A DNA stretch of 64,000 nucleotides from Minisyncoccota bacterium (GCA_028687715.1 JAQTZP010000004.1:25751-89750); one strand, 5' to 3'; positions 13,043 to 39,720 are shown, counted from the first letter of the stretch. Notes: generated by a model from the sequence alone, not told the origin. Translations and numbers: made by a program.

Positions 13043-13050
13043 AATAAAAA

Positions 13051-13180: not shown

Positions 13181-13206
13181 TTCAATAACTCTAATTCTAA
13201 TACTAT

Positions 13207-14241
13207 ATGAAAAATTTGTCAAGACCACCCTTTCTTGCCGGCTCTGACGCTCTGACCGAAGAAGAAAAAAACCTTGACCTTGCCTTAAGGCCTAAAAATT
13301 GGGACAGCTATATCGGCCAGGATAAGATTAAAAGAAATATAAAGATAATAATTGAAGCTGCCAAAAAGAGAAACGAAGCGCCTGAACATCTTCTTTTTTA
13401 CGGAAACAGCGGTCTGGGAAAAACAAGCCTGGCCCATCTCATTGCCAAAGAAACAGGCTCTAATATCCGAGTCACCTCGGGTCCGGTAATAGAAAAAGCA
13501 GGAGACCTTGCTGCGATTCTAACCAATCTTTCAGAAAAAGATATTCTTTTTATTGATGAACTTCACAGGCTTAATAAGCTCTGCGAGGAAATAATATATC
13601 CTGCAATGGAGGATTATAAGTTGAATATTGTACTGGGAAAAGGACCCATGGCAAGAACAATGGAATTAAAACTCCCTCATTTTACCATAATCGGAGCCAC
13701 AACAAGACTAGGCCTTATATCAGCCCCTTTAAGAAATAGGTTCGGAGCAACCTTTCAGCTTAGCTTTTACCAAAAAGAAGATATAGAGAAGATTATAATA
13801 AATTCAAGCAGAATTCTAAACATAAAAATAGAGCCTGAAGCAGTAAAGATTATCGCCAGACGCTCCAGGCTTACCCCTCGAGCCGCCAACAGGCTATTGA
13901 AAAGAGTGAGAGACTTTGCCCAGGTTGAAGGACAGGGAATAATTACTGCCCCAAACGCTGAAAAAGCTTTAACTCAACTGGAAATAGACCAAATGGGGCT
14001 TGAATCTGGAGACAGAAAAATCTTAGAAGCAATCATTGATAAGTTTCAAGGAGGTCCTGTCGGACTCCAAACCTTGGCGGCAGCCACTTCAGAAGAAGAA
14101 GGCACTATTTTAGATATCTATGAACCCTATCTAATGCAGATAGGCTTTATTGAAAGAACTCCCAGAGGAAGAATGGCTACTAAATATGCCTATGAGCATT
14201 TTGGGATAAAATACAAAGGCCCTCAAAACTCATTGATTTAA
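13207..14241 (+). CDS. ruvB: Holliday junction ATP-dependent DNA helicase RuvB
   Basis: LRPKNWDSYIGQ; Walker A GNSGLGKTSLA; a sensor/arginine finger; and a winged-helix C-terminus. Confidence 0.9.
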   Translation: MKNLSRPPFLAGSDALTEEEKNLDLALRPKNWDSYIGQDKIKRNIKIIIEAAKKRNEAPEHLLFYGNSGLGKTSLAHLIAKETGSNIRVTSGPVIEKAGDLAAILTNLSEKDILFIDELHRLNKLCEEIIYPAMEDYKLNIVLGKGPMARTMELKLPHFTIIGATTRLGLISAPLRNRFGATFQLSFYQKEDIEKIIINSSRILNIKIEPEAVKIIARRSRLTPRAANRLLKRVRDFAQVEGQGIITAPNAEKALTQLEIDQMGLESGDRKILEAIIDKFQGGPVGLQTLAAATSEEEGTILDIYEPYLMQIGFIERTPRGRMATKYAYEHFGIKYKGPQNSLI

Positions 14242-15428
14242 TGAAAAGATATCTTATTATAATAATCTTTGCCATAGCTCCTTTTGACGTCTTGGGAGCT
14301 AATTTTTTAGATGTGTCTATCAACGAAATATGCTGGATGGGAACAGAAATATCAGCCAATGATGAATGGATTGAACTTTACAATAACACCAACAACACCA
14401 TAAATCTTGAAGGATGGGTTTTAAAATCAGAGGATGACAGCCCAGAGATAAATCTAACCGGCGCTATCAATCCTTATGGCTATTATCTAATGGAAAGAAC
14501 AGACGACAATACAGTGCCTTATATATCTGCTGACGTAATTTATAAAGGAGGCTTGTCAAACAGCGGTGAAAGTTTAAAGCTCTATGACAATTCCGGAAAT
14601 CTAATTGACGAAGCTGATTGCAAAGACGGCTGGCCGGAAGGAGATAATGCTAAAAAACTAACAATGGAAAGGACAGATGATTCCAACTGGCAGACAAGCC
14701 AGAATACAAATGGAACCCCAAAAGCAAAAAACAGCCAGAAAGAAATAAATGCAGAGACTATAACTCCAAACAATTTGGAACAAATAACCGATATGCCGAT
14801 CATAAGGGAAGAAACCGAAACAACTTACCCGGGCGGAATATTATTTAATGAAATTCTTCCATCTCCTGAAGGAAAAGATGATACCGAAGAATGGATTGAA
14901 ATATTCAATCAGAATAACTTTGAAGTAAGCCTTTACAACTGGAAAATAAAAGACAATGAAGGGAAAACTACCGAATATATCTTTGACAGCGAATCAAAGA
15001 TATCTCCTTTGGGATATCTAGTATTGAAAAGACCTAAAACAAAAATCATCTTAAACAATGACATTGATAATCTTGTTCTCATCAACCCAATTAATGAAAT
15101 TATAGACTCTGTATCTTATGAAAAAGCGCCCCAGGGGAAATCATACAACAGAGTTTCATCTAACTGGATCTGGAGCAAGAGCCTGACTCCTGGCTCAAAA
15201 AATATCATTGTGAATGAAGAAAAAAGCACTGATTCTTTAAATAAAACTCTAGATAAAAAAGAGTTTGAGTCAAGTAATAATGATAATAAAACTGCTGAGA
15301 TAAAAGAGAAGCTAATGCCCTATGTTTCCAATAAATTTAGCTTTCTAATTGCTTTTTTAACTGCGCTCTTTTCAGCAGTGATAATTATATTTCTTAAGAA
15401 AAGCCTCTCTAAGCGTGAAGATATTTAA
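14241..15428 (+). CDS. Lamin-tail-domain (LTD) protein with a signal peptide, two LTD repeats and a C-terminal transmembrane anchor
   Basis: Two copies of the NEIxW...EWIELYN...LEGWxL pattern (INEICWMGT...EWIELYNNTNNTINLEGWVL and LFNEILPSPEGKDDTEEWIEIFNQ...NWKIKDNEG). N-terminal hydrophobic signal and C-terminal helix FLIAFLTALFSAVIIIFL. Confidence 0.65.
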   Translation: MKRYLIIIIFAIAPFDVLGANFLDVSINEICWMGTEISANDEWIELYNNTNNTINLEGWVLKSEDDSPEINLTGAINPYGYYLMERTDDNTVPYISADVIYKGGLSNSGESLKLYDNSGNLIDEADCKDGWPEGDNAKKLTMERTDDSNWQTSQNTNGTPKAKNSQKEINAETITPNNLEQITDMPIIREETETTYPGGILFNEILPSPEGKDDTEEWIEIFNQNNFEVSLYNWKIKDNEGKTTEYIFDSESKISPLGYLVLKRPKTKIILNNDIDNLVLINPINEIIDSVSYEKAPQGKSYNRVSSNWIWSKSLTPGSKNIIVNEEKSTDSLNKTLDKKEFESSNNDNKTAEIKEKLMPYVSNKFSFLIAFLTALFSAVIIIFLKKSLSKREDI

Positions 15429-15436
15429 AATCAGTT

Positions 15437-15476
15437 AAAAAAAGACCCGGGCACTTCAACTCGGGTCTTTTATTTT
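15437..15476. terminator. Bidirectional rho-independent terminator between convergent genes
   Basis: AAGACCCGG-loop-CGGGTCTT hairpin with an A-run upstream and a T-run downstream. Confidence 0.6.
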
Positions 15477-15492
15477 AAACCTTTGATTAATC

Positions 15493-18400
15493 TTAAAAAG
15501 GAGGTATTTCAATCCATTCTGGAGGAAGAAGAGTCATTCCTATAGGTACATCAATAGCCAGAGAGCAATCCCTGGACAAAGAATCGGTAACCATTAGAAC
15601 AACCTCTTTGGAACCTTCGGAATTAAACTTAATATTTGCGGGATTAGGACTAGTAGAACTCGCAGGAGTTCCGCTTTCAAAAGTCCATAAATAATTACAA
15701 GGACCTGAAGGACAAGTAGTTCCTGCGCTGAAAAAATCAGTATTTTCACCAACATTAGGATTTGAAGGATCCCAGGTAAATGAGGGACAGGGATATTCAG
15801 CTATCGAAGGAATGGTTGAGCTTGCCCAAGGAGAGTCTATAGGTCCGTTAGTATCCCAAACCATTACTCTCCAGTAATAATTAGTGCTGAAATTAATAGA
15901 TTGAGTAGCATAAGAATTTGAACTGCTTTGTACTTTATTGGTGTCAATTATTAGGTTGTTAAAACCCTCGTCAGTTGCAACCTGAACCTGATAGGCTGAT
16001 TGAAGATCGCCTTCGTCAGGATCAGAATATGTCCAAGAAAAAGCTACTGAAGGAACAGCATCGCAACAATCGGTAGCGCTGGGATTAAAGCTGATATTAG
16101 AAGGAGCATTAGGAGGATTATTAGACGGCTCTCCTTCACATCTACAATTTATACATTGCTGATATGGAAAACATAGATTTAAGCCCGGCTCTCCGCACTC
16201 CTCACCTGCATCTCTTATTCCGTCTCCGCAGCAGCAGTCTTCATCGCTAGAACACTCATCAGGAAGCTGTGATTTTGCTGATAATAAACATGCTATCATT
16301 CCGTTTGAAAAAGTACAAATTTTGCTTTTGCCTTCGCAATCTTCATAAGAGAAACATTGATTGCTTCCTTCTCCTGATACAGAAACGCAAGAATTACTGC
16401 TGTCGCATTCTAAGTGCTGTTTATCGCAGTCATTATTTGATAAACATTCATTTTTTCCCTCTCCGGGTTGAGGAACGCAAGTCGTGCCTACGCATTCATA
16501 ATGAGAGCCATCGCACCCTGAATCATCTAAGCACTTGTCTTCTCCTCCGCCTGACACAGAAACGCACCTATTGGCACTGCAGTCTAAATGTGTCTCGCCG
16601 CAATCGCTGTTTGAAAAACATTCATCAGAGCCTTCTCCTGAAACTAAATTACAGATGTTTACTCCACAAGCCCTGTGTTTATCATCTGTTCTGCAAATAG
16701 TAGAATCAGAACATTCATCTGGCCCTTGATCCATTACTGCAATGCAGTATTCAGCATAACAGATGTTATGGCTTCCCCAATCCTGGAAGCTTACTATCCC
16801 TCCCCCTTCACCAGCACAGGATTCAGGACCCTTAGAAGCAGAAGGGATTGATGAGATTTGAACGCTTGAGCCGATTTCTCCGGCTGAACCATTATTTGAA
16901 GGCGGAATGAACTTAATTGAAAAGTTTTCAGCAGAATAATTTGAACCTCCAAGCAAAGGATCTTTTGTCCTGCAGGAATTGAGTCCTGAATAAGAACAGC
17001 AATAAGGAGAATCAACAGGGCACTCAACTCCGTAATCCCAATAAGGATAAGTACCTGAATAAGCGCAGAAAGAATCAGCGCGAGGAAGATCTAGGACGGA
17101 AGCGCCCTGCAACCCACCTGCTCCCCCTGCTCCTGGGTTAAGCTGACCTTGAATAATATTTATATTAGTTAGTTGTATCGTACCGGCATTTCCTCCTTTG
17201 CCTCCAATTCCTCCGTTCCCAGGCTGATTTATGGAACTTGATTGTCCTGTTCCTCCTCTTCTGCCTATGCCGCCGCTAGCATAAAAGTTTTTTAAAATAG
17301 AGATATCAAGCGGGCTGTCTATTAAAATACTTCCTCCATCTCCGCCGCTTGCTCCTGACTGACCGCCATAGGAAGAAAAACCTGTTTGAGCAATTTCAAC
17401 TACTCCGCTTGTTCGAGATATTCCTGAGGCAACCTCTTCCGGGCTTAATACTCTTGTCTGGCAAGGAGTCTGAAGATTAGGCCCTCCTGATTTTGCTATA
17501 TTAATAAGTTCGGCTCCGCTTTTTGGATTAGTGCAGTACCAAGGATAAGAGCTGTAATCTCCGTCTCCTGTATCTCCGCCGTCTCCTCCTTTAATTTCTG
17601 CTGTAATGTTTTCAATAGGGTCATCAGTAGGCATCGGCTTTAAAGTTATATTTCCTCCAGCTCCTCCAGCGCCTGATACTTCAGCTACTTTTATCTCTTT
17701 TACTGCTTTATCTCTCCAGCCGGTTAAATCGCAGTTTCCAGTATGGTTATTGTAAATATCAAAAGGCGTTGCCATAACATTATAATCACCACTTTCTCCT
17801 CCTTTGCCCCCATTGCTTTTAAGAACTAAACTTTTAAAACAATGTATCCTGCTTGCACTTACTGTGATACTTCCTCCAATTCCTCCTGTTCCTCCTTGAC
17901 CCCCTGAACCTCTTTCATACATTGTATGAGTTACTGGTCCTTGATAGTAAATTCCGCCAACAGAGCAGTAATTACCTCCTGCGCCTATTCCTCCTCGAGA
18001 ACCATTCCCGCCGTTAGACTTCAAATCAAGAATATTAGTTCCTGACGCCCACTGGATCCTTGGACTTGTAACTGATATGTTTCCTCCATTTCCTCCAGAA
18101 ACTCCGTCTTGACCATCTGTTCCGTTGTAATATTCATGGGTTTGTTCTCTACAAAACGCATCTGTATCAGAAATAAAACTTCCAGTTGCAGGATCTAGAC
18201 TCACCCCTTCTTTTAAATACCATAAAGAGCCGTAGGGGCTTGGGTCTGAAGGAGTAAAACCAGAAGTATCTGCTATAAGGGAACGGCCCCAACCATTTGG
18301 CGCTGTTCCTTCTATCCTATAATTTGAAACTAAATTAACATCCCCCCCGTTGGGAGCAAAAGCATATCTGGCCCTGGCATAAATAGGGTTTTCTATTAAA

Positions 18401-19758
18401 AGAGTAGGTTCTAAGGAAAGATTAGTGTTTGAAGCTTCAATCCAGATATTTCCAGCAGACTGACCCGGAGGGTTTATAAGTTCGCCCGTAAATGCTGTTA
18501 CATCAAAATTATCGCTTGTTATGCTTCCTTTAACTTGAACCCAGGTTCCTTTTATATTAACATTATTAGGATCGGCTGCAGTATGAAATCCTGTAGAATT
18601 AATTCCAGAAGAACCTATAAAAACTATTCCATTGGGAGCATACAAAGAAATCTTTCCAACTATCCCAGCGCCGCTGTATCCTGTAGCATAAAGATTGCTA
18701 TTCTGATAGCCGCTGTAAGCACTGTTATTAATCCCTGAACCTACTCTTACTCCTCTCTGCTGACCAGTTCCGTTTGCTTGCAGTATAATTTTTCCACTAC
18801 TTTTATAATCCTTGCAGAATCTTCTGAATTTATAAGTGACAGGATTTAATTGGCAAAGATTTCCGTAATCGCATTTCTCTTCCTTAGTACTTTCTTCACA
18901 GGCGCTGTAGGTATAGATATTGTCAGTTATCCAGATTCTCTCATTAGCCTTAATTACAATATTACTAGGCTCAAGCCCCTGGGCAAATAAATTATTGGCA
19001 TATAAAGAGTTAATAAACATATCAAAAGGGGCAGGCAGAATTGTTATCTGACCCGCCCTGCCAAAGCCAGCAGTAGAAAAACCAAATACCGGCGCAAAAA
19101 CCCAGCCATATATTGATTGAGAAGATAAGGACCCTGCTTTAATATCTTTTCCATAAATAGAGATATTTCCTCCGTCTCCGCTAATACCGGCACAACTTAT
19201 ATTCCCTACAGAAACTATCTTCCCTTTTAAAATCACATTACCTCCATTGCCTTGATAAACTACGGCGCTTAACTCTTGGCTAGGCTGATTAAAGATATCC
19301 CCTCCGATTACCAGTCCCTCATTGGTTCTAAAAGTAATATTTGACGGAATAAATGAAACTCCTGAATACTTATAAATAGTAACGCTTTTATACTCTATCA
19401 AATCATAGGCAAATAAGTTTATGTCCGTTAAACTAGGCCTAGTTATCCGTAAACCTTCATCCGGGGAGAAATAAATCTTTTTTGTCCCCTTGATCGCAAA
19501 AGAACTAGCGGTTAATTTTACCTTATCCAAATCATTGCCGCTCCCATCTCTTAAATCAAAAGTTAAACCTGCATTAATCACATTATCAACAAAACTCTTA
19601 TTAACGCAGATAGAATCATCAGCGTCTATTTCCGAACAGGTTGAACTTTGATTAACTAAAGTGCAATTGCAAGATGCGGCAGAAACTGAACCTCCTTTTA
19701 TGGTTATTATAAAAAAGAAAAGAGCAAAGATTATTATTTTTAGCTTTTTATTTTTCAT
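15493..19758 (-). CDS. Giant secreted/surface protein (1421 aa) with Gly-rich repeats, Cys-rich modules and C-terminal FN3/PKD-like domains
   Basis: Signal peptide MKNKKLKIIIFALFFFIITIKGGSVSAA. Many GGxGGxG/SGGNGGN repeats suggestive of a beta-helix/beta-roll. About six tandem Cys-rich units of about 30 aa (CxxVSGxGxxxCxxxxDCxxxHLxC). FN3-like (YYWRVMVWD) and PKD-like segments near the C-terminus. Confidence 0.6.
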   Translation of the reverse strand: MKNKKLKIIIFALFFFIITIKGGSVSAASCNCTLVNQSSTCSEIDADDSICVNKSFVDNVINAGLTFDLRDGSGNDLDKVKLTASSFAIKGTKKIYFSPDEGLRITRPSLTDINLFAYDLIEYKSVTIYKYSGVSFIPSNITFRTNEGLVIGGDIFNQPSQELSAVVYQGNGGNVILKGKIVSVGNISCAGISGDGGNISIYGKDIKAGSLSSQSIYGWVFAPVFGFSTAGFGRAGQITILPAPFDMFINSLYANNLFAQGLEPSNIVIKANERIWITDNIYTYSACEESTKEEKCDYGNLCQLNPVTYKFRRFCKDYKSSGKIILQANGTGQQRGVRVGSGINNSAYSGYQNSNLYATGYSGAGIVGKISLYAPNGIVFIGSSGINSTGFHTAADPNNVNIKGTWVQVKGSITSDNFDVTAFTGELINPPGQSAGNIWIEASNTNLSLEPTLLIENPIYARARYAFAPNGGDVNLVSNYRIEGTAPNGWGRSLIADTSGFTPSDPSPYGSLWYLKEGVSLDPATGSFISDTDAFCREQTHEYYNGTDGQDGVSGGNGGNISVTSPRIQWASGTNILDLKSNGGNGSRGGIGAGGNYCSVGGIYYQGPVTHTMYERGSGGQGGTGGIGGSITVSASRIHCFKSLVLKSNGGKGGESGDYNVMATPFDIYNNHTGNCDLTGWRDKAVKEIKVAEVSGAGGAGGNITLKPMPTDDPIENITAEIKGGDGGDTGDGDYSSYPWYCTNPKSGAELINIAKSGGPNLQTPCQTRVLSPEEVASGISRTSGVVEIAQTGFSSYGGQSGASGGDGGSILIDSPLDISILKNFYASGGIGRRGGTGQSSSINQPGNGGIGGKGGNAGTIQLTNINIIQGQLNPGAGGAGGLQGASVLDLPRADSFCAYSGTYPYWDYGVECPVDSPYCCSYSGLNSCRTKDPLLGGSNYSAENFSIKFIPPSNNGSAGEIGSSVQISSIPSASKGPESCAGEGGGIVSFQDWGSHNICYAEYCIAVMDQGPDECSDSTICRTDDKHRACGVNICNLVSGEGSDECFSNSDCGETHLDCSANRCVSVSGGGEDKCLDDSGCDGSHYECVGTTCVPQPGEGKNECLSNNDCDKQHLECDSSNSCVSVSGEGSNQCFSYEDCEGKSKICTFSNGMIACLLSAKSQLPDECSSDEDCCCGDGIRDAGEECGEPGLNLCFPYQQCINCRCEGEPSNNPPNAPSNISFNPSATDCCDAVPSVAFSWTYSDPDEGDLQSAYQVQVATDEGFNNLIIDTNKVQSSSNSYATQSINFSTNYYWRVMVWDTNGPIDSPWASSTIPSIAEYPCPSFTWDPSNPNVGENTDFFSAGTTCPSGPCNYLWTFESGTPASSTSPNPANIKFNSEGSKEVVLMVTDSLSRDCSLAIDVPIGMTLLPPEWIEIPPF
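16300..16720. repeat. Divergent tandem repeats of about 90 nt inside the giant protein gene, encoding the Cys-rich modules
   Basis: GAAACGCA-containing units of similar length recur on the plus strand. Boundaries are approximate. Confidence 0.4.
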
Positions 19759-24434: not shown

Positions 24435-24536
24435 CGCTGCAATAAAAAAGTCCTTGTTTTCCCCTTGTTGTTTGTTTTTTATCTGTGGTAGAATAAATCA
24501 AAAGTCGATAAGGAAATAATATTTTCTGAATTTAAC

Positions 24537-24950
24537 ATGGCTGATTACTCAAAAGACCAGCTTTGGGATCTTTACGAAAGCCTGCCCAAAGAGCTTCAAA
24601 AAGCTATTTTTTCCTCTGAAAATGCTGACAAGATATACAATATAGCCGTAAAGAACGGATTAGAGGAAGAAAACATTCCAATTGTTTCTAAATATACAGG
24701 CTATGTTCTTTTAGGAATTATGCCGCCTGACGAGTTCCAGAAAACAATCAAGAAAGATTTAAAACTCTCAGAGCAGACTGCCAAAAAGATTGCCCTAGAA
24801 ATAAACAGGTTTATCTTTTATCCAGTAAAAAACAGCTTGGAGGCATTATACAGGATTGAAATTGAATCAAGTCCAAAGACCTTAAAAGAAAAAGCCTCTG
24901 AACCTGTTAAAAAAACATTAAAAGATAAATACAGAGAAGAAGTAGGATAA
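24537..24950 (+). CDS. Hypothetical protein (first gene of the T4SS-like module)
   Basis: An ORF with an upstream extended -10 (TGTGGTAGAAT). No recognised domain. Confidence 0.4.
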   Translation: MADYSKDQLWDLYESLPKELQKAIFSSENADKIYNIAVKNGLEEENIPIVSKYTGYVLLGIMPPDEFQKTIKKDLKLSEQTAKKIALEINRFIFYPVKNSLEALYRIEIESSPKTLKEKASEPVKKTLKDKYREEVG

Positions 24951-24958
24951 AAGATCTT

Positions 24959-25360
24959 ATGCAGTTTATTGTCCCTAAAATAGAAAGGAAATTAAGAATA
25001 GGGCCTCTCACCTTAGAACAGCTTGTTTATCTTGTTGTCGGCGGAGCAATCTCTTTTTTACTCTATCATTCAATCCCGCTTACCTCTTTTATTATTGCTT
25101 CAAGCCTGGTGATAACCCTAACTCTGCTTATGGCTTTTGGAAAAATAGGTAGAGATTCTTTTCCCGTGTTTATAAAAAAGGCGTTTTTATTCGCACTAAG
25201 CTCAAAGATTTATCTTTGGAAAAGAAAAGAAATATCTGTTAGTTTTGCTCCTGAGAAAAAAAGTAAATTAAAAGAAGAAAAGGAGGAGGAAGGCTTAAAA
25301 ATAGCCCAGTACAGCAGGCTTAAAGACTTATCAACAAAATTAGAAACCAAATCAAAATAA
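24959..25360 (+). CDS. PrgI/VirB3-like small membrane protein
   Basis: Two predicted transmembrane helices (LVYLVVGGAISFLLY, FIIASSLVITLTLLMAF) and a position immediately upstream of VirB4, as in Gram-positive-type T4SS. Confidence 0.4.
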   Translation: MQFIVPKIERKLRIGPLTLEQLVYLVVGGAISFLLYHSIPLTSFIIASSLVITLTLLMAFGKIGRDSFPVFIKKAFLFALSSKIYLWKRKEISVSFAPEKKSKLKEEKEEEGLKIAQYSRLKDLSTKLETKSK

Positions 25361-26011
25361 TTGTTTATGGCGAAATCAATAACTCAGGATTTCTTGCAGT
25401 TCAGCCAAATCAAAGACGGAATTCTTGTTCTAAAAAACAAGGGATTAAGAGCTGTTTTAATGGTCTCTTCTTTGAATTTTGAACTTAAATCAGAAGACGA
25501 GCAAAATGCAATTCTTTATCAGTTCCAGAACTTTTTAAACTCTCTGGATTTTTCTTGTCAGATTATAATCCATTCAAGGAGATTGAATATGGCAGGATAT
25601 TTAGACAGGCTTAAAGAGATAGAAAAGAACGAAAGAAACGAACTGTTAAAAATCCAAATAAATGAATATCAAAAATTTATTGAGAGCATTGTAGGAGAAG
25701 GAACGATTATGCAGAAGAACTTCTATGTAGTAGTTCCTTTTTCTTTAATGGAAATACCTGCTAAATCATTGTCTGAAACAGGAAAAAAAATCACTAAAAT
25801 AATCAATGAATTAACCGAGGAAGAGTTTAAAAGAGCCAGAACCCAGCTGCTTCAAAGAGCGGAATTTGTGGCTTTGGGATTAAGGAGTTCAGGACTCCAA
25901 AGCGTTCTTTTAAACACCATGGAAGTTTCCGAGCTTTTCTGGAGCCTCCATCATCCAACAGAATCAGAACAAGGGTATTATCCTGAAATCCCTCCGGAAC
26001 TTACTTCTTAA
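25361..26011 (+). CDS. VirB4/TrbE N-terminal domain encoded as a separate ORF
   Basis: IKDGILVLKNKGLRAVLMVSSLNFELKSEDEQNAILYQFQNFLNSLDFSCQIIIHSRR follows the VirB4 N-domain pattern (DDGxV..KDGSL.A..E..G.DL.S...EL......LN.AL..LG.GW.LH). The ORF ends 5 nt before the ATPase ORF, in a different frame. Confidence 0.5.
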   Translation: MFMAKSITQDFLQFSQIKDGILVLKNKGLRAVLMVSSLNFELKSEDEQNAILYQFQNFLNSLDFSCQIIIHSRRLNMAGYLDRLKEIEKNERNELLKIQINEYQKFIESIVGEGTIMQKNFYVVVPFSLMEIPAKSLSETGKKITKIINELTEEEFKRARTQLLQRAEFVALGLRSSGLQSVLLNTMEVSELFWSLHHPTESEQGYYPEIPPELTS

Positions 26012-26016
26012 TTTTT

Positions 26017-27816
26017 ATGTTGTTTCCTTTTTTTAAAAAAAGAGATAGAAAAACACCAGAAATTCCCTCGTCTGACCCTTTTAATATCGCTGATATAATA
26101 GCCCCGTCTTTTATTGAGATAAAGCATAGTTACCTGAAAATGGGAGAACGACTGGCTAAAACCTATTTTATCTTTTCATATCCAAGATATCTAAACACCG
26201 GATGGTTTTCTCCGGTGATAAATCTCAGCTTCCCGATAGACGTCTCCATCTATATTCATCCCATTGACAGCGCAGAAGCTTTAAAGCAGTTAAGGAGAAA
26301 AGTAACAGAGGTTCAGGCGGAAATATCAGAACGAGAGGAAAAAGGATTAATCCGCGACCCGGCGCTTGAAACTGCTTATACAGACTTAGAAGACTTAAGA
26401 GACAGGCTTCAAACGGCCCAGGAAAAGATGTTTAATTTTTCTGTTTATGTAACTTCTTATGCTGACAATGAAAAAGAGTTAAGAGATATAGAGATTGAAC
26501 TGCGCTCTATTTTGGAATCACGACTGATATATATAAAGCCGGCCCTATACCAGCAGAAAGAAGGGTTTTTATCAACCTCTCCCTACAACTTGGACCTTTT
26601 AATGGTGTCTAACAAATTAAACACAAGCCCGCTTTCAACATCGTTCCCTTTTGTCTCATTTGACTTAAGCTCAAACGAAGGGATTCTTTACGGCCTAAAC
26701 AAGCATAATGCCTCTCTTGTCTTGTTTGACCGATTTTCATTAGCCAATGCCAATTCAGTTATCTTTGGGGTAAGCGGCAGCGGAAAAAGCTATGCCATTA
26801 AGCTTGAGATTTTAAGATACCTGATGCTTAATGTTGATGTTATTGTAATCGACCCTGAAAATGAATACAGATTCCTTTCTGATGCCGTAGGCGGCTCTTT
26901 TTTCGAAATATCTCTTTCATCTGACAATCACATTAATCCCTTTGACCTTCCTCAGCCTAAAGAAGATGAAAAGCCTTCTGATGTTTTAAGGTCAAACATA
27001 ATAAACATGGTTGGTCTGATAAGAATAATGCTTGGCGGATTAACGCCTGAAGAAGACGCTATTATAGACCAGGCAATAACCGAAACATACGCTGCCAAAG
27101 ATATTACTCCTGAAAGCGACCCAAAGCTCTGGGGTAAAAAAGAAGGACTGGAATTTCCTATTATGAGCGATTTAGAGGAGGTTCTTTCTACTATGGAAGG
27201 AGCTGAATCGCTTGTTAGAAGAATCCAAAGGTTTACAAAAGGGGTTTACTCCAATTTCTTTAATCAGCCTTCAAACGTTGATACGACAAATAGAATGGTT
27301 GTTTTCGGCATCAGAGACATGGAAGACGAACTAAGACCCATGGCTTTATTTATAATCCTAAGATATGTCTGGAAAACAATTACCTCCAAGATGAAAAAAC
27401 GCCTCCTTATAATAGACGAAGCCTGGTGGCTGATGAAAAATGAAGATGGAGCTTCATTTCTATTCGGCACTGTCAAAAGAGCCAGGAAATACTGGCTGGG
27501 AGTAACCACTATCACCCAGGACGTAAACGATTTTATGAAGTCTGATTACGGAAAACCGATTATCACCAATTCAGAGCTCCTTGTTTTAATGAAGCAGAGC
27601 CCGGCTACTATTGAAACGGTCAAAAATACCTTTAATCTAACAGAAGAAGAAAAGCTTTTACTGCTTGAATCTCCGACTGGCGAAGGGATATTTTTTGCCG
27701 GAACCAAGCATGTTTTAATAAGGGTGCTTGCTTCATACACCGAAGACCAGATAATCACCACAGCGCCTGAAGAGATTATAAAAATAAAGGAGGCTAAAAA
27801 AGAATTAGAAAGCTAA
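26017..27816 (+). CDS. VirB4-family type IV secretion ATPase (ATPase domain)
   Basis: Walker A GVSGSGKSY and Walker B LLIIDEAWWLM (the DEAW signature of VirB4/TraE/PrgJ). Confidence 0.8.
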   Translation: MLFPFFKKRDRKTPEIPSSDPFNIADIIAPSFIEIKHSYLKMGERLAKTYFIFSYPRYLNTGWFSPVINLSFPIDVSIYIHPIDSAEALKQLRRKVTEVQAEISEREEKGLIRDPALETAYTDLEDLRDRLQTAQEKMFNFSVYVTSYADNEKELRDIEIELRSILESRLIYIKPALYQQKEGFLSTSPYNLDLLMVSNKLNTSPLSTSFPFVSFDLSSNEGILYGLNKHNASLVLFDRFSLANANSVIFGVSGSGKSYAIKLEILRYLMLNVDVIVIDPENEYRFLSDAVGGSFFEISLSSDNHINPFDLPQPKEDEKPSDVLRSNIINMVGLIRIMLGGLTPEEDAIIDQAITETYAAKDITPESDPKLWGKKEGLEFPIMSDLEEVLSTMEGAESLVRRIQRFTKGVYSNFFNQPSNVDTTNRMVVFGIRDMEDELRPMALFIILRYVWKTITSKMKKRLLIIDEAWWLMKNEDGASFLFGTVKRARKYWLGVTTITQDVNDFMKSDYGKPIITNSELLVLMKQSPATIETVKNTFNLTEEEKLLLLESPTGEGIFFAGTKHVLIRVLASYTEDQIITTAPEEIIKIKEAKKELES

Positions 27817-28122
27817 TTGCTTATGAGCAACTTTATATCCCCAGAAGCCGTAGTAATGCTTCTTGCCGCCGTTCTTCTTGATACAATAGGCTTTTTATTC
27901 TTGTTTCTCAGTTTTTTAGGCGTAGGTATTCCTCTTTCTTTTATCCCTGATTTAATTGGATTAATTTTTATCGGAGGCTGGATGTTTCTACGCTCTGGAG
28001 CAAGGCAAAAAAGAATAGGCAAGAGACTGGGTCTGGCTTTTTTAGGGGAAATAATCCCTTTTTTCGGAGATATTGCTCCCTGCTGGACCTTAGCTGTATT
28101 TTTTGAATTAAAAAATAATTAA
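27817..28122 (+). CDS. Small integral membrane protein (likely ATG start at 27823)
   Basis: Three hydrophobic helices; contiguous with VirB4. Confidence 0.4.
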   Translation: MLMSNFISPEAVVMLLAAVLLDTIGFLFLFLSFLGVGIPLSFIPDLIGLIFIGGWMFLRSGARQKRIGKRLGLAFLGEIIPFFGDIAPCWTLAVFFELKNN

Positions 28123-28132
28123 TCTATATATT

Positions 28133-28480
28133 ATGAAAATTGCAATAACTATATTTTCATTACTTATTTTTCTTTTCCCGTCTATTATATATTCTTTTTC
28201 TAGACCCCCAGAGCTTGATTATCCTTTTACAGACCTTACTAATCTGCCCGGCTATATCATTTATCTTTATAATTTTGCAGTTGTGATAAGTGCATTTATT
28301 GCTCTTGGAGCTTTAGTTTACGGAGGCTTTAAATATCTTACATCAGCAGGAAATCCAAGCAAAGTTCAGGACGGGTTAGACCAAATTAAAGCAGCGATAT
28401 TCGGTATTTTGATTGTCTTGTGTTCTTATTTAATTCTTAAAACTATAAATCCTAATTTAGTAGTCTGGCCTTTCTTTTAA
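28133..28480 (+). CDS. VirB2/TrbC-like pilin candidate (signal peptide plus two transmembrane segments)
   Basis: A signal-like N-terminus followed by a hydrophobic helix, a loop and a second hydrophobic helix (YGGFKYLTSAGNPSKVQDGLDQIKAAIFGILIVLCSYLIL). A paralog lies at 39210..39647. Confidence 0.45.
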   Translation: MKIAITIFSLLIFLFPSIIYSFSRPPELDYPFTDLTNLPGYIIYLYNFAVVISAFIALGALVYGGFKYLTSAGNPSKVQDGLDQIKAAIFGILIVLCSYLILKTINPNLVVWPFF

Positions 28481-30214: not shown

Positions 30215-30430
30215 ATTCTAAAATTATTATTAATTACTGTTTGCTAATATAGTAGTATAATATTAAAATTAATCAGGGTCAACAAATCTGTTTTTTTAGA
30301 ACCAAGAATTATCCATATTTAATCACCAACTTATCCACAGCTTGTTAACAAATAGTGGATTTCTCTGTTTATTTTAGTTTTGTTTTGACTTGTGTTAAAA
30401 TGAAATAATCGTAATTTTATTCCCATTATT
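30215..30430. promoter_or_regulatory. oriC-proximal region upstream of dnaA, with DnaA boxes and the dnaA promoter
   Basis: Perfect TTATCCACA at 30331-30339; TTATCCATA at 30309-30317; reverse-orientation AATCCACTA at about 30352-30360; extended -10 TGTTAAAAT before dnaA. Confidence 0.7.
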
Positions 30431-31780
30431 ATGACAAACGAAGAGCTTTGGCAAGGCGTTCTTGCCCAAATTCAATTGAATATCTCCCAGGCAAACTTTG
30501 CTACTTGGTTTAAAAATACTTCTATTGTTTCTCAAAAAGAAGGCAGGTTGTTAATCTCTGTGCCTAATTCATTTGTCAGAGAATGGCTTGAAAATAAATA
30601 CAATAAGCAGATATTTAAAATAATCCATAATTTAAACGAAGAGATTAAGGAAATCAAATACAGCGTTGGGAAGGCCTCGGAAAAAGCTGTTAAAAAGGCT
30701 TCTATAGACCTGCTTGAAAGCGACCAGCTTGAGTTCCAAGAACTTAAAATAGACAAAGAAACAAACCTTAATCCCAAATACATCTTTGATTCTTTTATAG
30801 TCGGCCCCTTCAATGAACTGCCCCACGCAGCCGCCTCAGCAGTAGCTGAAAATCCAGGATACATCTATAACCCTTTATTCATTTACGGAGGAGTGGGTCT
30901 TGGAAAAACTCATTTGCTTCAGGCAATAGGCAATGAAGTTGCAAAGAACTTTAAAACAAAAAAAGTAAGATATATTTCTTCTGAAAAATTCACTTCAGAA
31001 GTTGTATTGTCTATTAAAAACCATCAAATTGACTCTTTTAAATCAAAATACAGAGCCATTGACGTCTTAATAATAGATGATATTCAGTTTTTAGCAGGAA
31101 AAGAAAAGACTCAAGAAGAATTCTTCCATATTTTCAACGTCTTATACGAGAATAATAAGCAGATTATCCTTTCATCTGATTGTCCACCCAAAGCAATCCA
31201 CTCGTTAGCCGAAAGATTAAGATCCAGATTTGAAGGAGGAATGACAGCGGATATAAGCAATCCTGATTTTGAAACCAGAGTTGCTATTTTAAAAACAAAA
31301 GCTCAGGAAAAAAAGGTTGATTTTCCAATTGAAGTATATAATTATCTTGCTTCTTCTATTCAAAAGAACATCAGGGAATTAGAAGGAGCCTTAAACAGGC
31401 TTATTGCTTATCAAAAAATAAACAACAAGCAGCTGGATTTGGAAACCATAAAGATTATTCTTAAAAACGTTCTAATGAGTCCGGCTAAGGTTATCACCCC
31501 AAAGAAAATCATCCAAACCGTGGCTGAATTCTATGATTTAAAAGAAAAAGACATTTTAGACTGCTCCAGAAAAAAAGAGATTGTAAGACCGAGACAAATA
31601 GCAATGTATTTATTAAGAGAAGAATTAAAAAGCTCTTTCCCTTTTATCGGAAGAAAATTCCAGGGCAAAGACCATACTACTGCCATTCATTCGTATAAAA
31701 AAATAGCTAAAGAAATTGAAAAAGATAAAAAACTGGAAGAAGAAATAAGTTTAATTAAAGAAAGGGTTTTAAGCTCTTAG
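30431..31780 (+). CDS. dnaA: Chromosomal replication initiator protein DnaA
   Basis: AAA+ Walker A GGVGLGKTHLL; sensor motifs; C-terminal DnaA-box-binding domain (RPRQIAMYL...TAIHSY). Confidence 0.95.
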   Translation: MTNEELWQGVLAQIQLNISQANFATWFKNTSIVSQKEGRLLISVPNSFVREWLENKYNKQIFKIIHNLNEEIKEIKYSVGKASEKAVKKASIDLLESDQLEFQELKIDKETNLNPKYIFDSFIVGPFNELPHAAASAVAENPGYIYNPLFIYGGVGLGKTHLLQAIGNEVAKNFKTKKVRYISSEKFTSEVVLSIKNHQIDSFKSKYRAIDVLIIDDIQFLAGKEKTQEEFFHIFNVLYENNKQIILSSDCPPKAIHSLAERLRSRFEGGMTADISNPDFETRVAILKTKAQEKKVDFPIEVYNYLASSIQKNIRELEGALNRLIAYQKINNKQLDLETIKIILKNVLMSPAKVITPKKIIQTVAEFYDLKEKDILDCSRKKEIVRPRQIAMYLLREELKSSFPFIGRKFQGKDHTTAIHSYKKIAKEIEKDKKLEEEISLIKERVLSS

Positions 31781-31983
31781 AAGATGAGGAAAAAATGTTG
31801 ATAAGATTGTGGATTTAAAAGTGATAAAAATACAATAACTTTATCTATTAATTTATCCACAATTTATCTAATGTTTTTTAAAGGGAAAATTAGATATTAA
31901 TCCCCAATAAAACCTATATTAAAAACCTAAATTAAAACTTAACTTAATAATAATAAATTTTAATTAAAAACTAATAATTAATT
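31781..31983. promoter_or_regulatory. Candidate oriC core (dnaA-dnaN intergenic region) with DnaA boxes and an AT-rich unwinding region
   Basis: Perfect TTATCCACA at 31853-31861; degenerate boxes TTGTGGATT (31808-16), TTATCTATT and TTATCTAAT; about 100 nt of more than 85% AT sequence immediately before dnaN. Confidence 0.7.
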
Positions 31984-33664: not shown

Positions 33665-34915
33665 GTGATTATAATTTATACATCAAGAAATAGGTTCTTG
33701 ATAGCGGAACCTTCACAATTTAATATGGAGGAAAATACAATGAAGATGTGGTATAGTTTTTGTCAGATAATATTTATCATCATTGCCCTGGTTATCGTCG
33801 GGGTAATAGCATTCTTTTTGGCAAAATTAATTTTTTGGCTCAGTATAATTAGTATCCCTATTCTAATTCTTATTTTCATCTATAATGCTATTACTATTAT
33901 TTCAGCAGATCCTCCCAATAAAGGAATTTGGGTTTTTTTTGGAAAAAGACAGAAAGTGTTATTAAAAGAAGGATGGCATTTCCTTCCTTTTTATCCTATT
34001 GTTTTTGATGCAATTTCAATTAGAGTGACTAAAATAAATCAAGATCTGCCCAATCAGGTAGTACGAACCCCCGATTTAGCAGAGGTTAGTGTAAGCATAA
34101 GCGTTACTTGGATTCCGGGTGGTCCGGACAATATAGATGAAAAAGATCAGGCAAGTGCCTTTATCCAATTTCTGAACAGCGGAGAGGAGGAAGGAGTTAA
34201 AAATATTCTCCAGGATATTATCAACGACAGGCTTAGAGGATGGGCGATCTCCGAAGAAGAGGGTCCGTCTGATTGGCAAGAATTATTGGGCGCCAGGGAT
34301 GATGCTATAACTGTTTTATTAAAAGCCATCCTAGGAGAAGATCTATCTTCTATTCCTTCTTCTGTCCCTACACCTGTGTTACTTAAATATTGGGATGTTC
34401 CCCCGAAGAGACCTTTAAAAAAAGAGATGAGTAAATGGGGAAAGAGAACTAGAAAAGGTAGTGAGTGGCAAAGATTAGAAGAAGAATTAGCCAAATTATC
34501 AGATCAAGAAAGAGAAAATTTAAAAATGAAAATAGAAGAAAGACGAAATCTTATTAAGATGGCTAGGCAAGGTAATGGGTTTTTTTATAAAAAACCTCTT
34601 GGTATTACAATTAATCGTTTTACTATCGATAACGCAGCCCCTCTAGGAAAAACTGCAGAAGCGGCTGAACTCAAAGCTAAAGAGCAACACGAAAGAGCTG
34701 CTGAAAAAACAGAAATAGAGGGAATTATGGATAGAATAAGAGATTTAAAAGATTTAGGCTTTTCTTTAGAGCAAGCCTTAGAAATAGTTCAATCTGAAAG
34801 AGGAAAGATTACTAAATCAGTTTCTGAGAGTAAGCTTAACATTTCTTCTGAGACGAGAGCAATGATTGAAAAAGTGTTTCCTGATTTAGCTAAATTATTA
34901 AAGAAAACAACGTAA
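33665..34915 (+). CDS. SPFH/band-7 (prohibitin/flotillin-like) membrane protein with a charged coiled-coil tail
   Basis: N-terminal transmembrane helices followed by an SPFH-like core (GIWVFFGKRQKVLLKEGWHFLPFYP...SIRVTKINQDLPNQVVRTPDLAEVSVSISVTW). Confidence 0.65.
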   Translation: MIIIYTSRNRFLIAEPSQFNMEENTMKMWYSFCQIIFIIIALVIVGVIAFFLAKLIFWLSIISIPILILIFIYNAITIISADPPNKGIWVFFGKRQKVLLKEGWHFLPFYPIVFDAISIRVTKINQDLPNQVVRTPDLAEVSVSISVTWIPGGPDNIDEKDQASAFIQFLNSGEEEGVKNILQDIINDRLRGWAISEEEGPSDWQELLGARDDAITVLLKAILGEDLSSIPSSVPTPVLLKYWDVPPKRPLKKEMSKWGKRTRKGSEWQRLEEELAKLSDQERENLKMKIEERRNLIKMARQGNGFFYKKPLGITINRFTIDNAAPLGKTAEAAELKAKEQHERAAEKTEIEGIMDRIRDLKDLGFSLEQALEIVQSERGKITKSVSESKLNISSETRAMIEKVFPDLAKLLKKTT

Positions 34916-34938: not shown

Positions 34939-37014
34939 TTATTTTTTAAATAAATCTCTTAATTTTTTAGGTTTACTTTTTGCGGGGGGCTGGGTTTGTT
35001 TTTTTTCAATTTCAACGCCTGGCGGTAGAATTATTCTTGATATTACCCCTTTTTCTTTTTCTTCTTTCCATCGTTGCAATATTTCGGGTTTAATTGTGAA
35101 CATGCTTTGACCCGCCTGGCTGGAAAAATAATTTTTAAGAGTTGGACTTATATTGGCTCCAGTATTAATTCTTTCTTCTATCTTCGAGGCTGCATTTTTT
35201 CCAAGATTTTCAATAAGCTTATCTATATGTTTACTAGTAGCATTAATTAATATTGCATCCATTACTTCGGTGCTTTCTATTGCTTGACTAGATATCTTTT
35301 CGTAATCAGCAGGTTTCATTTTTTTAATTGTTTCCATCATGTCGGCGCCTTCAAGCATATGAGGTATTGCCTTGTCAATAACCTTATTAGACTGCCATTT
35401 CTTAGCCGTTTCTCTTATTTTCTTAATTTCTGCATCAGTTATATTCCCTTTTTTAACAAAGTCATTAAAGTTTCCATCTTCTATAATTTGATTTAATATT
35501 CCTACTTTATCAGTTTCAATCTTTGCTTTGCGGTAGGCGGATAATTGGGTTTCTGCTGTTTTTCCTTTTATGCTTTCTTGAGTTTTTTTAATCTGTTCTC
35601 TTTGGCTTTCAGTCAAGCCTGGGCCCAAAGGAGTTGCTATTGCCCTTCCAAGAGCAACAAAAGGAGTGCTTACAGTTCTTTTAGCCCAGCCTCCAATTCC
35701 GGTTTGGTTTTGTCCCCACTTTCCTGCAGTAGCCATTCCTGTCGCTGCTTTCCTAACCGCTGCTGGCACCAATTGTTTTACTTTTCCTGCCGCATACTTT
35801 CCTGCTGCTCCTGCGGCCTTCCCCCCGGCCCATCCAGCAGCTTGCTTGCCCCTTCTTTTAAATGAGTCTATTATCGCGCCAGAGCCTATAGCAGAGGTTT
35901 TTAGCCCAAATACCAGTCCAAGGCCTAGAAAAGCTAAAGAGACGAAATAGCTGATAATTCTGGCCTTAAAGCCAACAACAGCAGTGCTTCCAAAATTTAT
36001 ATCCGGTGAGCTAGAATTTATATTAGGCCATATGTTTATAAAATAGTTTGCCATAGAAAAGAAGAAGGCGCAGGTTATTCCAATGGTGGCCCATTGGACA
36101 AACTGCGTCCACCATGTATTCCAATACTGCCTTGTATTGGGCAGAATATAGAGGGCAAAGGCAATTGGGGATAAGATAACCAGTATCATTATGGCAAAGT
36201 ATCTGAGCAGAAAAATAGCGGCAAATAACAGATAAATAAAGAAGGATATCAGGTATACAAAAATTAAGACAAATAATTGAATAATACCTGTTTTAAATGT
36301 TTCATAATTCCAATTGCTCCACATTTCATATGAAAGACAGTCTGGAAGACTGTATATTGGCCTGCCTTGATAATAATAACAGGCGCTTTGCTGTTCTATT
36401 ATTCCTGATTTCTGAAAAAGGAAATAATCCATAGTAATATTTGAGGCATCAACAATAAGTCCGCATATAACAGGAGCAAAGTTTATAAGCAGAGCAATAA
36501 CAATAAAAGTGTATAAGGTTTTTTTAGTCCTGTAGTTTTCCAGTCTTAGCATGGTTGCCAGTCCAATAAACACTAAAACTAAAGCAAGCACCATATTAAT
36601 AAGACCTCTGGTATATCCCAGCCCTATTGCGACTATAGGATTAGTGCCTGGATTGGTAAGCTGCATTTCTAAAAAGCCAGGACTTATTACCCATTGTACC
36701 AGCGAGATGCCGAGGTCTTTCAACATTTCAGCTATTTTAGCAAACAGCCAGAAAAACATAGCGAAAAGATACATTATCCATGCTTCAATAAAGCTAAGGG
36801 ATTTAGTTTCAGACACTTTTTGATTATTCAAATAGTCTGCATAAGCGCCTGTTGGCATAACTCCGCCTGGTCCTGGGACAATGGGAAAAACAGTGCCTGT
36901 GCCAGGATCAACAACCTGAGCATTAGCAAATGAAGACAGAACAAGGATTGCGCCTATTAAGCATAAAGAGAAAGAAATAAGAATCTTTTTTGGGTTTTTC
37001 AATTTCTTAAACAT
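34939..37014 (-). CDS. Large polytopic membrane protein with a signal peptide and a Gly/Ala/Lys-rich C-terminal tail; possible VirB6/TrbL-like component
   Basis: At least 8 predicted transmembrane helices in the N-terminal 400 aa; the C-terminus carries GKQAAGWAGGKAAGAAGKYAAGK repeats. The topology resembles TrbL/VirB6, but there is no motif-level proof. Confidence 0.35.
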   Translation of the reverse strand: MFKKLKNPKKILISFSLCLIGAILVLSSFANAQVVDPGTGTVFPIVPGPGGVMPTGAYADYLNNQKVSETKSLSFIEAWIMYLFAMFFWLFAKIAEMLKDLGISLVQWVISPGFLEMQLTNPGTNPIVAIGLGYTRGLINMVLALVLVFIGLATMLRLENYRTKKTLYTFIVIALLINFAPVICGLIVDASNITMDYFLFQKSGIIEQQSACYYYQGRPIYSLPDCLSYEMWSNWNYETFKTGIIQLFVLIFVYLISFFIYLLFAAIFLLRYFAIMILVILSPIAFALYILPNTRQYWNTWWTQFVQWATIGITCAFFFSMANYFINIWPNINSSSPDINFGSTAVVGFKARIISYFVSLAFLGLGLVFGLKTSAIGSGAIIDSFKRRGKQAAGWAGGKAAGAAGKYAAGKVKQLVPAAVRKAATGMATAGKWGQNQTGIGGWAKRTVSTPFVALGRAIATPLGPGLTESQREQIKKTQESIKGKTAETQLSAYRKAKIETDKVGILNQIIEDGNFNDFVKKGNITDAEIKKIRETAKKWQSNKVIDKAIPHMLEGADMMETIKKMKPADYEKISSQAIESTEVMDAILINATSKHIDKLIENLGKNAASKIEERINTGANISPTLKNYFSSQAGQSMFTIKPEILQRWKEEKEKGVISRIILPPGVEIEKKQTQPPAKSKPKKLRDLFKK

Positions 37015-37987: not shown

Positions 37988-39109
37988 ATGCTGCCTTTAT
38001 CTAATAATAAAGAGAATTTGCCTGTTGGAAGCGGCAATAAAAGGAATAAAAAGAAACGTAAAAGGGCTCTAAACCCTGTTTTTGTTAGCCTCTCATTCTT
38101 GTTTATTATCGTAATAGGAGTCTTGTTTTTTAAAGACAACAGCAATAAATCCCTTTTTGGACGGGATTTTTCTTTTTTGTCAGCAAACGCAAAAGATATA
38201 ATTTACTCCCAAAGATTATTTGTGGAACCGGCTAAAAATATTGTAAGTGATTCGCCTGATATAAATTTTGTTCAGGATAACAGTATAGCTAGAATTTGCC
38301 CTCCTGTTTCATTTAACCCCCAGTCTTTAGGCACTATTTTAGGGGAAGTGGATGTCGGCTCTGATATTGACGGCGAGATAAGGGAATACGTTGTTGAAGC
38401 AGGCGATACCCTTTCTTCTATTGCCCAGAAATTCAACATATCTCAGGAAACAATATTGTGGGCTAATAATCTAAAGAGCAAATCTGATATCAAGAATAAT
38501 CAGAAGCTTATAATCCTTCCAGTGTCCGGAGTCCTTCATATGGTAAAAGACGGAGATACTGTCGGTTCCATTGCCAAGGTCTACGGGTCAAGCTCGAAAG
38601 AGGTAGTTGATTTCAATAATTTGTCTGATGAAGGAAATATCTATATCGGAGATATTTTAGTTGTTCCCGGAGGAAAGGTGCCTCAGAAATCAGCGCCTTC
38701 GGTCCCTTCAATCCCCTTGGCTGATTCTTACTTTATCTTTCCCTGCGAAGGAACTATCAGTCAGGGCCCTCACGGCTCCTTCTTTAGCGCCATTGATATA
38801 GCCAATCAATGCGGCAAAATAGTTGTTGCCGCTGCCGGAGGAGTTGTTCAGAAGACGGGGTATATAAAAGTGGGAGGCAATATGGTGAATATCCTTCATC
38901 CGAACGGAGTTGTAACCTATTACGGACACCTTTCAAAAACAGCTGTGGCTCCCGGTCAGACAGTTGGAGCAGGAGATATAATAGGGTATATAGGAAATAC
39001 AGGCTATACTATCGGAGGCACTGGATGCCATCTCCACTTTGAAGTAAGGGGAGCAAAGAACTTTTTATCGCAGTATCCGGTAGGCACTTGCTTGAGCTGG
39101 AGGAAATAG
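37988..39109 (+). CDS. LysM-domain M23 family metallopeptidase (cell-wall hydrolase)
   Basis: An N-terminal transmembrane segment; two LysM repeats (YVVEAGDTLSSIAQKF, HMVKDGDTVGSIAKVY); M23 motifs HPNG...YYGH and CHLHFEV. Confidence 0.8.
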   Translation: MLPLSNNKENLPVGSGNKRNKKKRKRALNPVFVSLSFLFIIVIGVLFFKDNSNKSLFGRDFSFLSANAKDIIYSQRLFVEPAKNIVSDSPDINFVQDNSIARICPPVSFNPQSLGTILGEVDVGSDIDGEIREYVVEAGDTLSSIAQKFNISQETILWANNLKSKSDIKNNQKLIILPVSGVLHMVKDGDTVGSIAKVYGSSSKEVVDFNNLSDEGNIYIGDILVVPGGKVPQKSAPSVPSIPLADSYFIFPCEGTISQGPHGSFFSAIDIANQCGKIVVAAAGGVVQKTGYIKVGGNMVNILHPNGVVTYYGHLSKTAVAPGQTVGAGDIIGYIGNTGYTIGGTGCHLHFEVRGAKNFLSQYPVGTCLSWRK

Positions 39110-39647: not shown

Positions 39648-39720
39648 GCCCTCATAGCTCAATTGGCAGAGCAGATCCCTCTTAAGGATAAGGTTCCAGG
39701 TTCGACTCCTGGTGGGGGCA
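39648..39720 (+). tRNA. tRNA-Lys (anticodon CTT), no encoded CCA
   Basis: Cloverleaf read by hand: acceptor GCCCTCA/TGGGGGC with one G.U pair; D-arm GCTC-AATTGGCA-GAGC; anticodon loop CT-CTT-AA; T-arm CCAGG-TTCGACT-CCTGG. Confidence 0.7.

Follow-up and report, generated by a model that had tools for sequence, protein, structure and literature searches.

A probably vertically inherited, non-conjugative type IV secretion locus with a two-piece VirB4 motor beside the replication origin of a Minisyncoccota chromosome

Introduction

What does a gene cluster built like the core of a conjugation apparatus do beside a chromosomal replication origin? The question is raised by a 64-kb stretch of DNA from a Minisyncoccota bacterium (GCA_028687715.1, JAQTZP010000004.1:25751-89750), the whole of which is called the window here, and in which the module at positions 24537-28480 resembles a minimal type IV secretion system (T4SS). 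The initial annotation of this module proposed a PrgI-like protein, a VirB4 split into two open reading frames (ORFs), small membrane proteins and a VirB2-like pilin, with a second pilin and a VirB6/TrbL-like protein on the far side of the origin, which may serve DNA uptake or host attachment rather than conjugation. Our analysis leads us to regard the locus as very probably a vertically inherited chromosomal T4SS of the Patescibacteria clade, derived from the mating-pair-formation class FATA (MPF-FATA) and carried by a Paceibacteria-type genome, which acts as a non-conjugative host-contact machine.

T4SSs of this kind are already known, the system having been described in papers of 2023 and 2025. 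Across 3,035 Patescibacteria genomes, Quinonero-Coronel et al. (2025) found in 2,407 assemblies a VirB4 clade that is monophyletic and lies within MPF-FATA, with TrsD, a remote homologue of the VirB4 N-terminus, as the commonest associated component, alongside PrgI/VirB3, VirB6 and PF18895/VirB2-like pilins that often occur in arrays (PMC12102498). The same study reported virB4-associated VirB1 homologues with M23/LysM domains in Paceibacteria, and T4SS genes near dnaA, dnaN, rnpA, ksgA and rpmH, a proximity its authors read as a gene-dosage effect (PMC12102498). By Tn-seq, Wang et al. (2023) showed a homologous cluster and its pilins to be essential for the epibiotic growth of Southlakia epibionticum, in which the cluster lacks recognisable coupling and relaxase proteins (PMC10633639). 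The description of such systems as poorly characterised is thus dated, as they have been catalogued in more than 2,400 Patescibacteria genomes and are essential in S. epibionticum.

Among T4SSs, that of Patescibacteria was the first to be shown essential for its own carrier bacterium. Since it is also a leading candidate for host exploitation by ultrasmall epibionts, each well-resolved locus helps to define its minimal parts, and the present one is a compact example, in which a core of six genes is accompanied by a single VirB6-like gene and two bare pilins. The system and its components were published between 2023 and 2025, as were its lack of relaxases and its proximity to dnaA, so the discovery value here is small; our additions are modest, namely an inversion spanning oriC, two conserved accessory proteins that belong to no known family, and bare pilins where relatives have fusion proteins.

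Results

Six ORFs run in one direction through 24537-28480, separated by 8, 0, 5, 0 and 10 nt, an operon-like spacing that bears out the compact, co-directional cluster first described. All on the plus strand, they encode in order a conserved soluble 137-aa protein without known family (24537-24950), a PrgI/VirB3-like small membrane protein of 133 aa (24959-25360), a TrsD/TraD-like homologue of the VirB4 N-domain (216 aa; 25361-26011, likely start ATG at 25367), a VirB4-type, MPF-FATA-like ATPase of 599 aa (26017-27816), a conserved small membrane protein of 101 aa (27817-28122, start codon uncertain) and a VirB2-like T4SS pilin in a bare 115-aa form (28133-28480). Past dnaA and dnaN relative to this core lie the gene for an extended VirB6/TrbL_3-like polytopic membrane protein of 691 aa (34939-37014, minus strand) and that for a second VirB2-like pilin paralogue of 145 aa (39210-39647, plus strand). 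Consensus scans for promoters and terminators gave no enrichment over shuffled sequences; an extended -10-like element, TGgTAGAAT, at about 24486-24494 was spotted by eye only. For comparison, we mapped related loci by tblastn in 83 distinct metagenome genomes, 80 of them from different GTDB species and three obtained through exact-protein look-up.

The ATPase matches the NCBIfam VirB4-like model CD1110 (382.7 bits, cutoff 325; profile positions 187-732 of 752), Pfam P-loop_TraG at E=2e-25, and the crystallised C-terminal domain of Thermoanaerobacter VirB4 (PDB 4ag5) at E=8e-39, which places the protein firmly among the VirB4 ATPases, as had been proposed. Both Walker motifs are intact, A as GVSGSGKS (residue 251) and B as LLIIDEAW (residue 463), and the ORF has no N-domain of its own. 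The TrsD-like ORF just upstream matches the N-terminal part of CD1110 (positions 7-147), positions 102-264 of NCBIfam VirB4_plasma (E=1.6e-10) and the TrsD/TraD model NF041427 (E=4e-6). Since the two ORFs cover successive parts of VirB4 models, together they are collinear with one canonical VirB4. All 70 TrsD orthologues match the model of the VirB4 N-terminal part and 53 of the 70 match TrsD, while the TrsD-like proteins of relatives carry a precomputed Pfam match to PF26593 (TraC-like); a PDB sequence-profile search with the TrsD family gave no significant match. An NCBI protein from the metagenome genome of a 'Candidatus Pacebacteria bacterium' has the same sequence as the ATPase (100% identity). 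The 120 best-listed homologues share 74-100% identity with it and measure about 595-610 aa, with two exceptions of about 580 aa; all those among the 120 with a named source come from metagenome genomes that belong to the candidate phyla radiation (CPR).

A gap of just 5 nt between the two ORFs might suggest that a single virB4 has been broken by a frameshift, a sequencing error or decay into a pseudogene. Against this, the TrsD-like protein (about 203-231 aa) and VirB4 (about 589-631 aa) are separate ORFs in all 76 loci in which both were recovered, with gaps ranging from -20 to +675 nt and in varying frame, so the split is no artefact. Both ORFs are moreover well conserved (median identity of TrsD, 51%), and in Firmicutes plasmids, too, VirB4 follows a free-standing TrsD-like gene, as it does in pGO1-type systems (PMC12102498). 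The chance that the split is an error is practically nil, conservation across the 76 loci having refuted such an origin. The N-domain and ATPase pair recognised at the outset therefore holds, and the comparison of loci points to the split being an ancient, fixed trait of this T4SS lineage.

The product of 24959-25360 matches Pfam PrgI (PF12666) at E=6.4e-4, below the gathering score; all 63 of its orthologues match PrgI, the best at 8.7e-14, and its hydropathy profile indicates two N-terminal transmembrane segments at about residues 17-35 and 45-63. A PrgI-like protein is thus present at this position, although the first ORF of the cluster (24537-24950) is soluble and not PrgI-like. Similarly, the small membrane proteins that had been noted do exist, with only one of them, encoded at 27817-28122, of unknown family.

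Both pilin candidates match the T4SS_pilin family PF18895 (gathering score 26.6), that encoded at 28133-28480 with 35.3 bits and its paralogue at 39210-39647 with 27.9 bits; the former also matches the NCBIfam Mbov_0395 pilin-like model at E=1.6e-6. Hydropathy profiles show in each a signal peptide followed by a hairpin of two transmembrane segments (hydrophobic stretches 1-19, 48-66 and 87-105 in the 115-aa protein), to which the second pilin adds a Cys-rich N-terminal segment. A hidden Markov model of the pilin domain built from relatives detects the second pilin at E=9e-9 and, among all window ORFs of at least 40 aa, matches only these two. The Pfam TrbC/VirB2 family PF04956 reached E=0.56 for the 145-aa pilin and gave no match to the 115-aa pilin; both belong to PF18895 instead. 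The tRNA-Lys(CTT) gene at 39648-39720 starts 1 nt past the stop codon of the second pilin.

In relatives, the PF18895 domain forms the N-terminal ~120 aa of 98 ORFs of 115-1218 aa (median ~400), long examples being L001:12248-16446, L002:12150-17176 and L085:3513-9988 (L numbers denote loci), and the C-terminal extensions of these proteins match no Pfam family. Compared with such predicted fusion proteins, the window pilins, at 115 and 145 aa, are unusually bare. The layout in relatives raises the possibility that the machine chiefly assembles or anchors surface adhesins, with the PF18895 domain as the anchor, and serves attachment rather than translocation: a signal peptide followed by two transmembrane helices would leave a C-terminal extension outside the cell. 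This reading draws on topology and domain layout, and we consider it unlikely, given that the window holds only bare pilins, which suggests that adhesin display is dispensable here, and that the VirB6-like channel protein and the VirB4 motor have been kept.

The 691-aa protein is polytopic, with at least five transmembrane helices and a TrbL-type core, as expected of a VirB6/TrbL-like protein. Its match to Pfam TrbL (PF04610) is weak (E=0.012; 15.9 bits, gathering score 25.9), and four of 37 family members match TrbL at E<=0.1, the best at 1.8e-5; a precomputed Pfam match to TrbL_3 (PF19590) is on record for an identical protein and for the majority of its homologues. In an AlphaFold model built with 55 homologues (mean predicted local distance difference test score, pLDDT, of 78), the best Foldseek matches in the PDB are TrwI/VirB6 chains of the R388 T4SS at a probability of 0.97-1.0 and a target-normalised TM score of 0.37-0.57, yet at E values of only 0.1-0.5. 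Its helical C-terminal domain of about 300 aa is confidently modelled over residues ~470-660, for which reason we call it an extended VirB6.

Two of the six core genes encode conserved proteins outside known families. In 34 related loci the 137-aa gene comes first, directly 5' of the PrgI gene. An AlphaFold2 model of its product shows a six-helix N-terminal bundle (residues 11-100 have pLDDT above 90), after which come a Lys-rich disordered linker and a near-invariant C-terminal D-x-Y-R-E motif. The protein matches no Pfam or NCBIfam family and has no significant PDB sequence-profile match, and the confident model found nothing better than E=0.4 in a Foldseek search of the PDB. The 141-aa protein encoded 5' of PrgI in a Geobacillus plasmid was compared with it and is unrelated. 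The 101-aa gene lies directly 3' of VirB4 in 21 loci and specifies a protein with about three hydrophobic segments, whose alignment has the invariant residues A18, D22, G53, E78, P81, G84, W90 and V94 and whose family comprises 252 representative clusters at E<=1e-3; it has no Pfam, NCBIfam or significant PDB sequence-profile match. Neither protein matched any of 72,556 plasmids by tblastn. Profile-profile comparison among the 137-aa, 101-aa, PrgI, pilin, TrsD and VirB6-like families found no hidden relationships, which excludes the 101-aa protein as a divergent pilin or VirB3.

The two proteins are probably lineage-specific accessory subunits, and their families deserve names. A bolder proposal would make them unrecognised core subunits of the Paceibacteria-type T4SS and, at the same time, PF18895 a general display anchor, the whole forming a modular apparatus for host recognition. 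If so, the PF18895 module would mount extracellular domains of up to ~1,200 aa on the cell surface or on a filament, and this genome would represent a stripped-down, adhesin-free form. We think this combination improbable.

The module was placed next to oriC from the start, and this is justified by the only perfect DnaA boxes of the 64 kb, a pair at 30331 and 31853 on either side of dnaA, together with the minimum of cumulative GC skew at 30-32 kb. One-mismatch boxes occur at 30309 and 31796, and we delimit a putative oriC, with no strand assigned, as dnaA and both flanking intergenic regions (30215-31983). The window belongs to a low-GC (~0.35) CPR/Patescibacteria chromosome, and its ORFs of at least 120 aa encode housekeeping or otherwise ordinary products, including Mur ligase, RuvABC, TyrRS, PBP1, Jag, YidC, RnpA, DnaA, DnaN, KsgA, PNPase and CCA-adding enzyme. 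Among these scanned ORFs, no match to a relaxase, a VirD4/TcpA-type coupling protein, an integrase or a transposase was found, in line with the reported absence of mobile-element hallmarks.

The homology of VirB4, TrsD and PrgI to components of Gram-positive conjugative plasmids and integrative conjugative elements (ICEs) invites the idea that the locus is the remnant or active core of an integrated element that still moves DNA with a relaxase and coupling protein encoded elsewhere, the more so as VirD4-like genes occur in most Patescibacteria genomes, usually distant from virB4 (PMC12102498). The surroundings argue otherwise: the flanks are housekeeping genes, the site beside dnaA is fixed in a large majority of the 83 loci, the GC content of the core (0.35-0.39) equals that of its flanks, with only the oriC region just downstream being more AT-rich, and neither integrase nor relaxase is present among the ORFs scanned. 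Of 3,035 Patescibacteria genomes, only 103 have a relaxase, and in Southlakia the coupling-protein homologue is non-essential (PMC12102498). Gene context and synteny thus lead us to reject an ICE remnant, and we regard an element of this sort as very unlikely. The non-conjugative role proposed at the outset agrees with the published view (PMC12102498; PMC10633639).

A system without relaxase and coupling protein might instead take up DNA, as does the Helicobacter ComB system, which likewise has neither, or the archaeal Ced system, with host DNA as a source of nucleotides. CPR organisms in general probably cannot synthesise nucleotides, and the same would hold for this one. The ATPase domain does match NCBIfam CedB (E=9e-12) and CedD weakly, but these matches score 44 and 20.7 bits, for cutoffs of 700 and 600 respectively, and they are confined to the P-loop region. 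In Southlakia, competence requires type IV pili and ComEC, and deletion of comEC abolishes transformation and leaves viability intact; the T4SS, by contrast, is essential (PMC12857230, citing Wang 2023). That competence can be lost without loss of viability speaks against DNA uptake being what makes the system essential. Of the two functions suggested initially, DNA uptake is therefore disfavoured, and we consider it quite improbable.

The related loci also explain how the system came to straddle the origin. The order recurring in most of the 83 loci is 137-aa gene, PrgI, TrsD, VirB4, (101-aa gene), (one to five pilin-domain genes), jag(-), yidC(-), rnpA(-), dnaA(+), dnaN(+), with the T4SS beside dnaA. 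In most relatives, with VirB4 57-70% identical, M23(-), ksgA(+), VirB6-like(+) and sometimes SPFH(-) lie 5' of the core, and PBP1(-) and tyrS(+) come after dnaN; ksgA and the VirB6-like gene occupy this commoner position in L010, L014 and L017-L083. In the window and its closest relatives (L001-L007, L009, L012, L016 and L085), it is tyrS(-) and PBP1(+) that lie 5' of the core, and SPFH(+), VirB6-like(-), ksgA(-) and M23(+) that follow dnaN. As this is exactly the order that one inversion would yield, we infer that in this lineage the stretch running from the 137-aa gene to dnaN (~24.5-33.2 kb), which spans oriC and includes rpmH-dnaA-dnaN, was inverted once. No inverted or other repeats marking the breakpoints were found.

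Inversion of the core-plus-oriC segment would account for the position of the VirB6-like gene and the second pilin across the origin, and supports their belonging to the same system. It would also mean that the genes on either side of the origin can be rearranged, with none lost, by an inversion across oriC. Over the 45 loci with full coverage, median identity is 64% for VirB4, 58% for DnaA, 49% for DnaN and 47% for YidC, and VirB4 is more identical than DnaA in 41 of the 45, a comparison biased upward by the choice of loci on VirB4 similarity. Despite this bias, the values indicate that VirB4 is under a constraint like that on housekeeping genes.

Further genes near the origin may contribute to the machine. 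M23, KsgA and VirB6-like genes form a recurrent neighbourhood in relatives, and the window protein encoded at 37988-39109 (plus strand) contains two LysM domains and a Peptidase_M23 domain (Pfam). This peptidoglycan hydrolase is a tentative candidate for a VirB1-type wall remodeller; alternatively, it may be an ordinary cell-division hydrolase, as its DipM-like NCBIfam matches would suggest. An SPFH/Band-7 membrane protein (33665-34915, plus strand; Pfam Band_7, E=9e-10), whose membership of the T4SS is uncertain, may be functionally linked to it. An SPFH/Band-7 gene adjoins the VirB6-like gene in L009, L024, L031, L035, L039, L041 and L085.

Elsewhere in the window, a gene for a PilB-like T2SSE ATPase (11726-13042) is followed by ruvB (13207-14241), a gene for a Lamin-tail-domain protein (14241-15428) and a 1421-aa ORF on the minus strand (15493-19758) with one Ig-like domain and a local GC content of 0.42-0.435 compared with ~0.35; the genes in 11726-19758 could be related to the cell surface or to type IV pili. 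A 921-aa ORF at 42760-45525 (plus strand) lies where the strand composition is extremely skewed (GC skew +0.37 to +0.40, AT skew +0.36) and has, as its sole domain match, a C-terminal PG_binding_1; the long ORFs antisense to it (42732-43667 and 43677-44156) are probably shadow ORFs. The genome is reduced, and three paralogous B12-binding radical-SAM proteins are encoded within the 64 kb (341-1837, 4463-6001 and 57665-59245). A pair comprising an MNT-like nucleotidyltransferase and a HepT-like RNase (63146-63978) resembles a toxin-antitoxin module.

Discussion

Extrapolating from the observed gene content, motifs and synteny to assembly, substrate and essentiality, we propose that PrgI, TrsD, VirB4 and the VirB6-like protein would form a translocon in the cytoplasmic membrane. 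A VirB4 hexamer, driven by ATP, would pull pilins out of the membrane once their signal peptides had been processed, and the extracted pilins would build a short pilus or conduit through the wall, perhaps with the assistance of the LysM-M23 hydrolase. The completed machine would serve contact-dependent exchange with a host, either exporting proteins or importing host molecules, and would not conjugate. A conduit role for the T4SS has been proposed in a review (PMC12857230). Epibiotic growth probably depends on the system, by analogy with S. epibionticum.

Several points weigh against this interpretation. The window PrgI and TrbL scores lie under the Pfam gathering thresholds, no VirB8-like component was identified, and the conservation of VirB4 is overstated to some degree by the selection of loci. 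The genome could have a coupling-protein or relaxase gene beyond the 64 kb of the window. A pilus has not been demonstrated for any Patescibacteria T4SS (PMC12857230), and the function is extrapolated from one cultivated saccharibacterium, the class of which differs from Paceibacteria. Weighing these points together with the conserved two-piece motor, the fixed chromosomal setting and the published Patescibacteria systems, we still hold a vertically inherited, host-contact T4SS to be highly probable.

The closest counterpart is the Patescibacteria-clade T4SS, exemplified by SEML1_0006-0019 of Southlakia, from which nothing fundamental differs. The two share an MPF-FATA-like VirB4 with adjacent TrsD, PrgI/VirB3, VirB6 and PF18895 pilins, the lack of a relaxase (here, in the window) and a chromosomal site by dnaA, dnaN, rnpA, rpmH and ksgA. 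What sets the present locus apart is that the VirB6-like gene and one pilin appear to have been shifted across oriC by inversion, and that two bare pilins stand in place of arrays or fusion proteins.

Among plasmid systems, those of the pGO1/pSK41 type (TrsC/TrsD/TrsE) and Geobacillus pGspE55-1 share a PrgI/TrsC-type VirB3 followed by a TrsD-like gene directly 5' of VirB4, and the pGO1/pSK41-type and Firmicutes plasmid clusters also have an M23 peptidase and a large polytopic protein nearby. On the Geobacillus subterraneus plasmid (L084, 36376-50939), the cluster comprises PrgI, a TrsD-like protein of 318 aa, a DUF87-VirB4, a 907-aa polytopic protein and M23. It has the same order as the CPR cluster and adjoins genes like those of the type II secretion system F component (T2SS-F), and PLSDB types the plasmid as non-mobilizable. 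Systems of the pGO1/pSK41 type are plasmid-borne and conjugative, with a relaxase and a coupling protein and without VirB2-like pilins, whereas the locus described here is chromosomal and has pilins, with neither relaxase nor coupling protein detected in the window.

Other T4SSs are more distant. Sequence similarity to the VirB/Trw systems (MPF-T, for example R388) is very low, and their outer-membrane core of VirB7, VirB9 and VirB10, as well as VirB5, VirB11 and VirD4, was not detected here. Helicobacter ComB, Bordetella Ptl and Brucella VirB are likewise relaxase-free, some of them also lacking a coupling protein, and have been repurposed from conjugation; they belong to another MPF class, and work in diderm envelopes on other substrates, and beyond VirB4 no specific homology between them and the present system was found.

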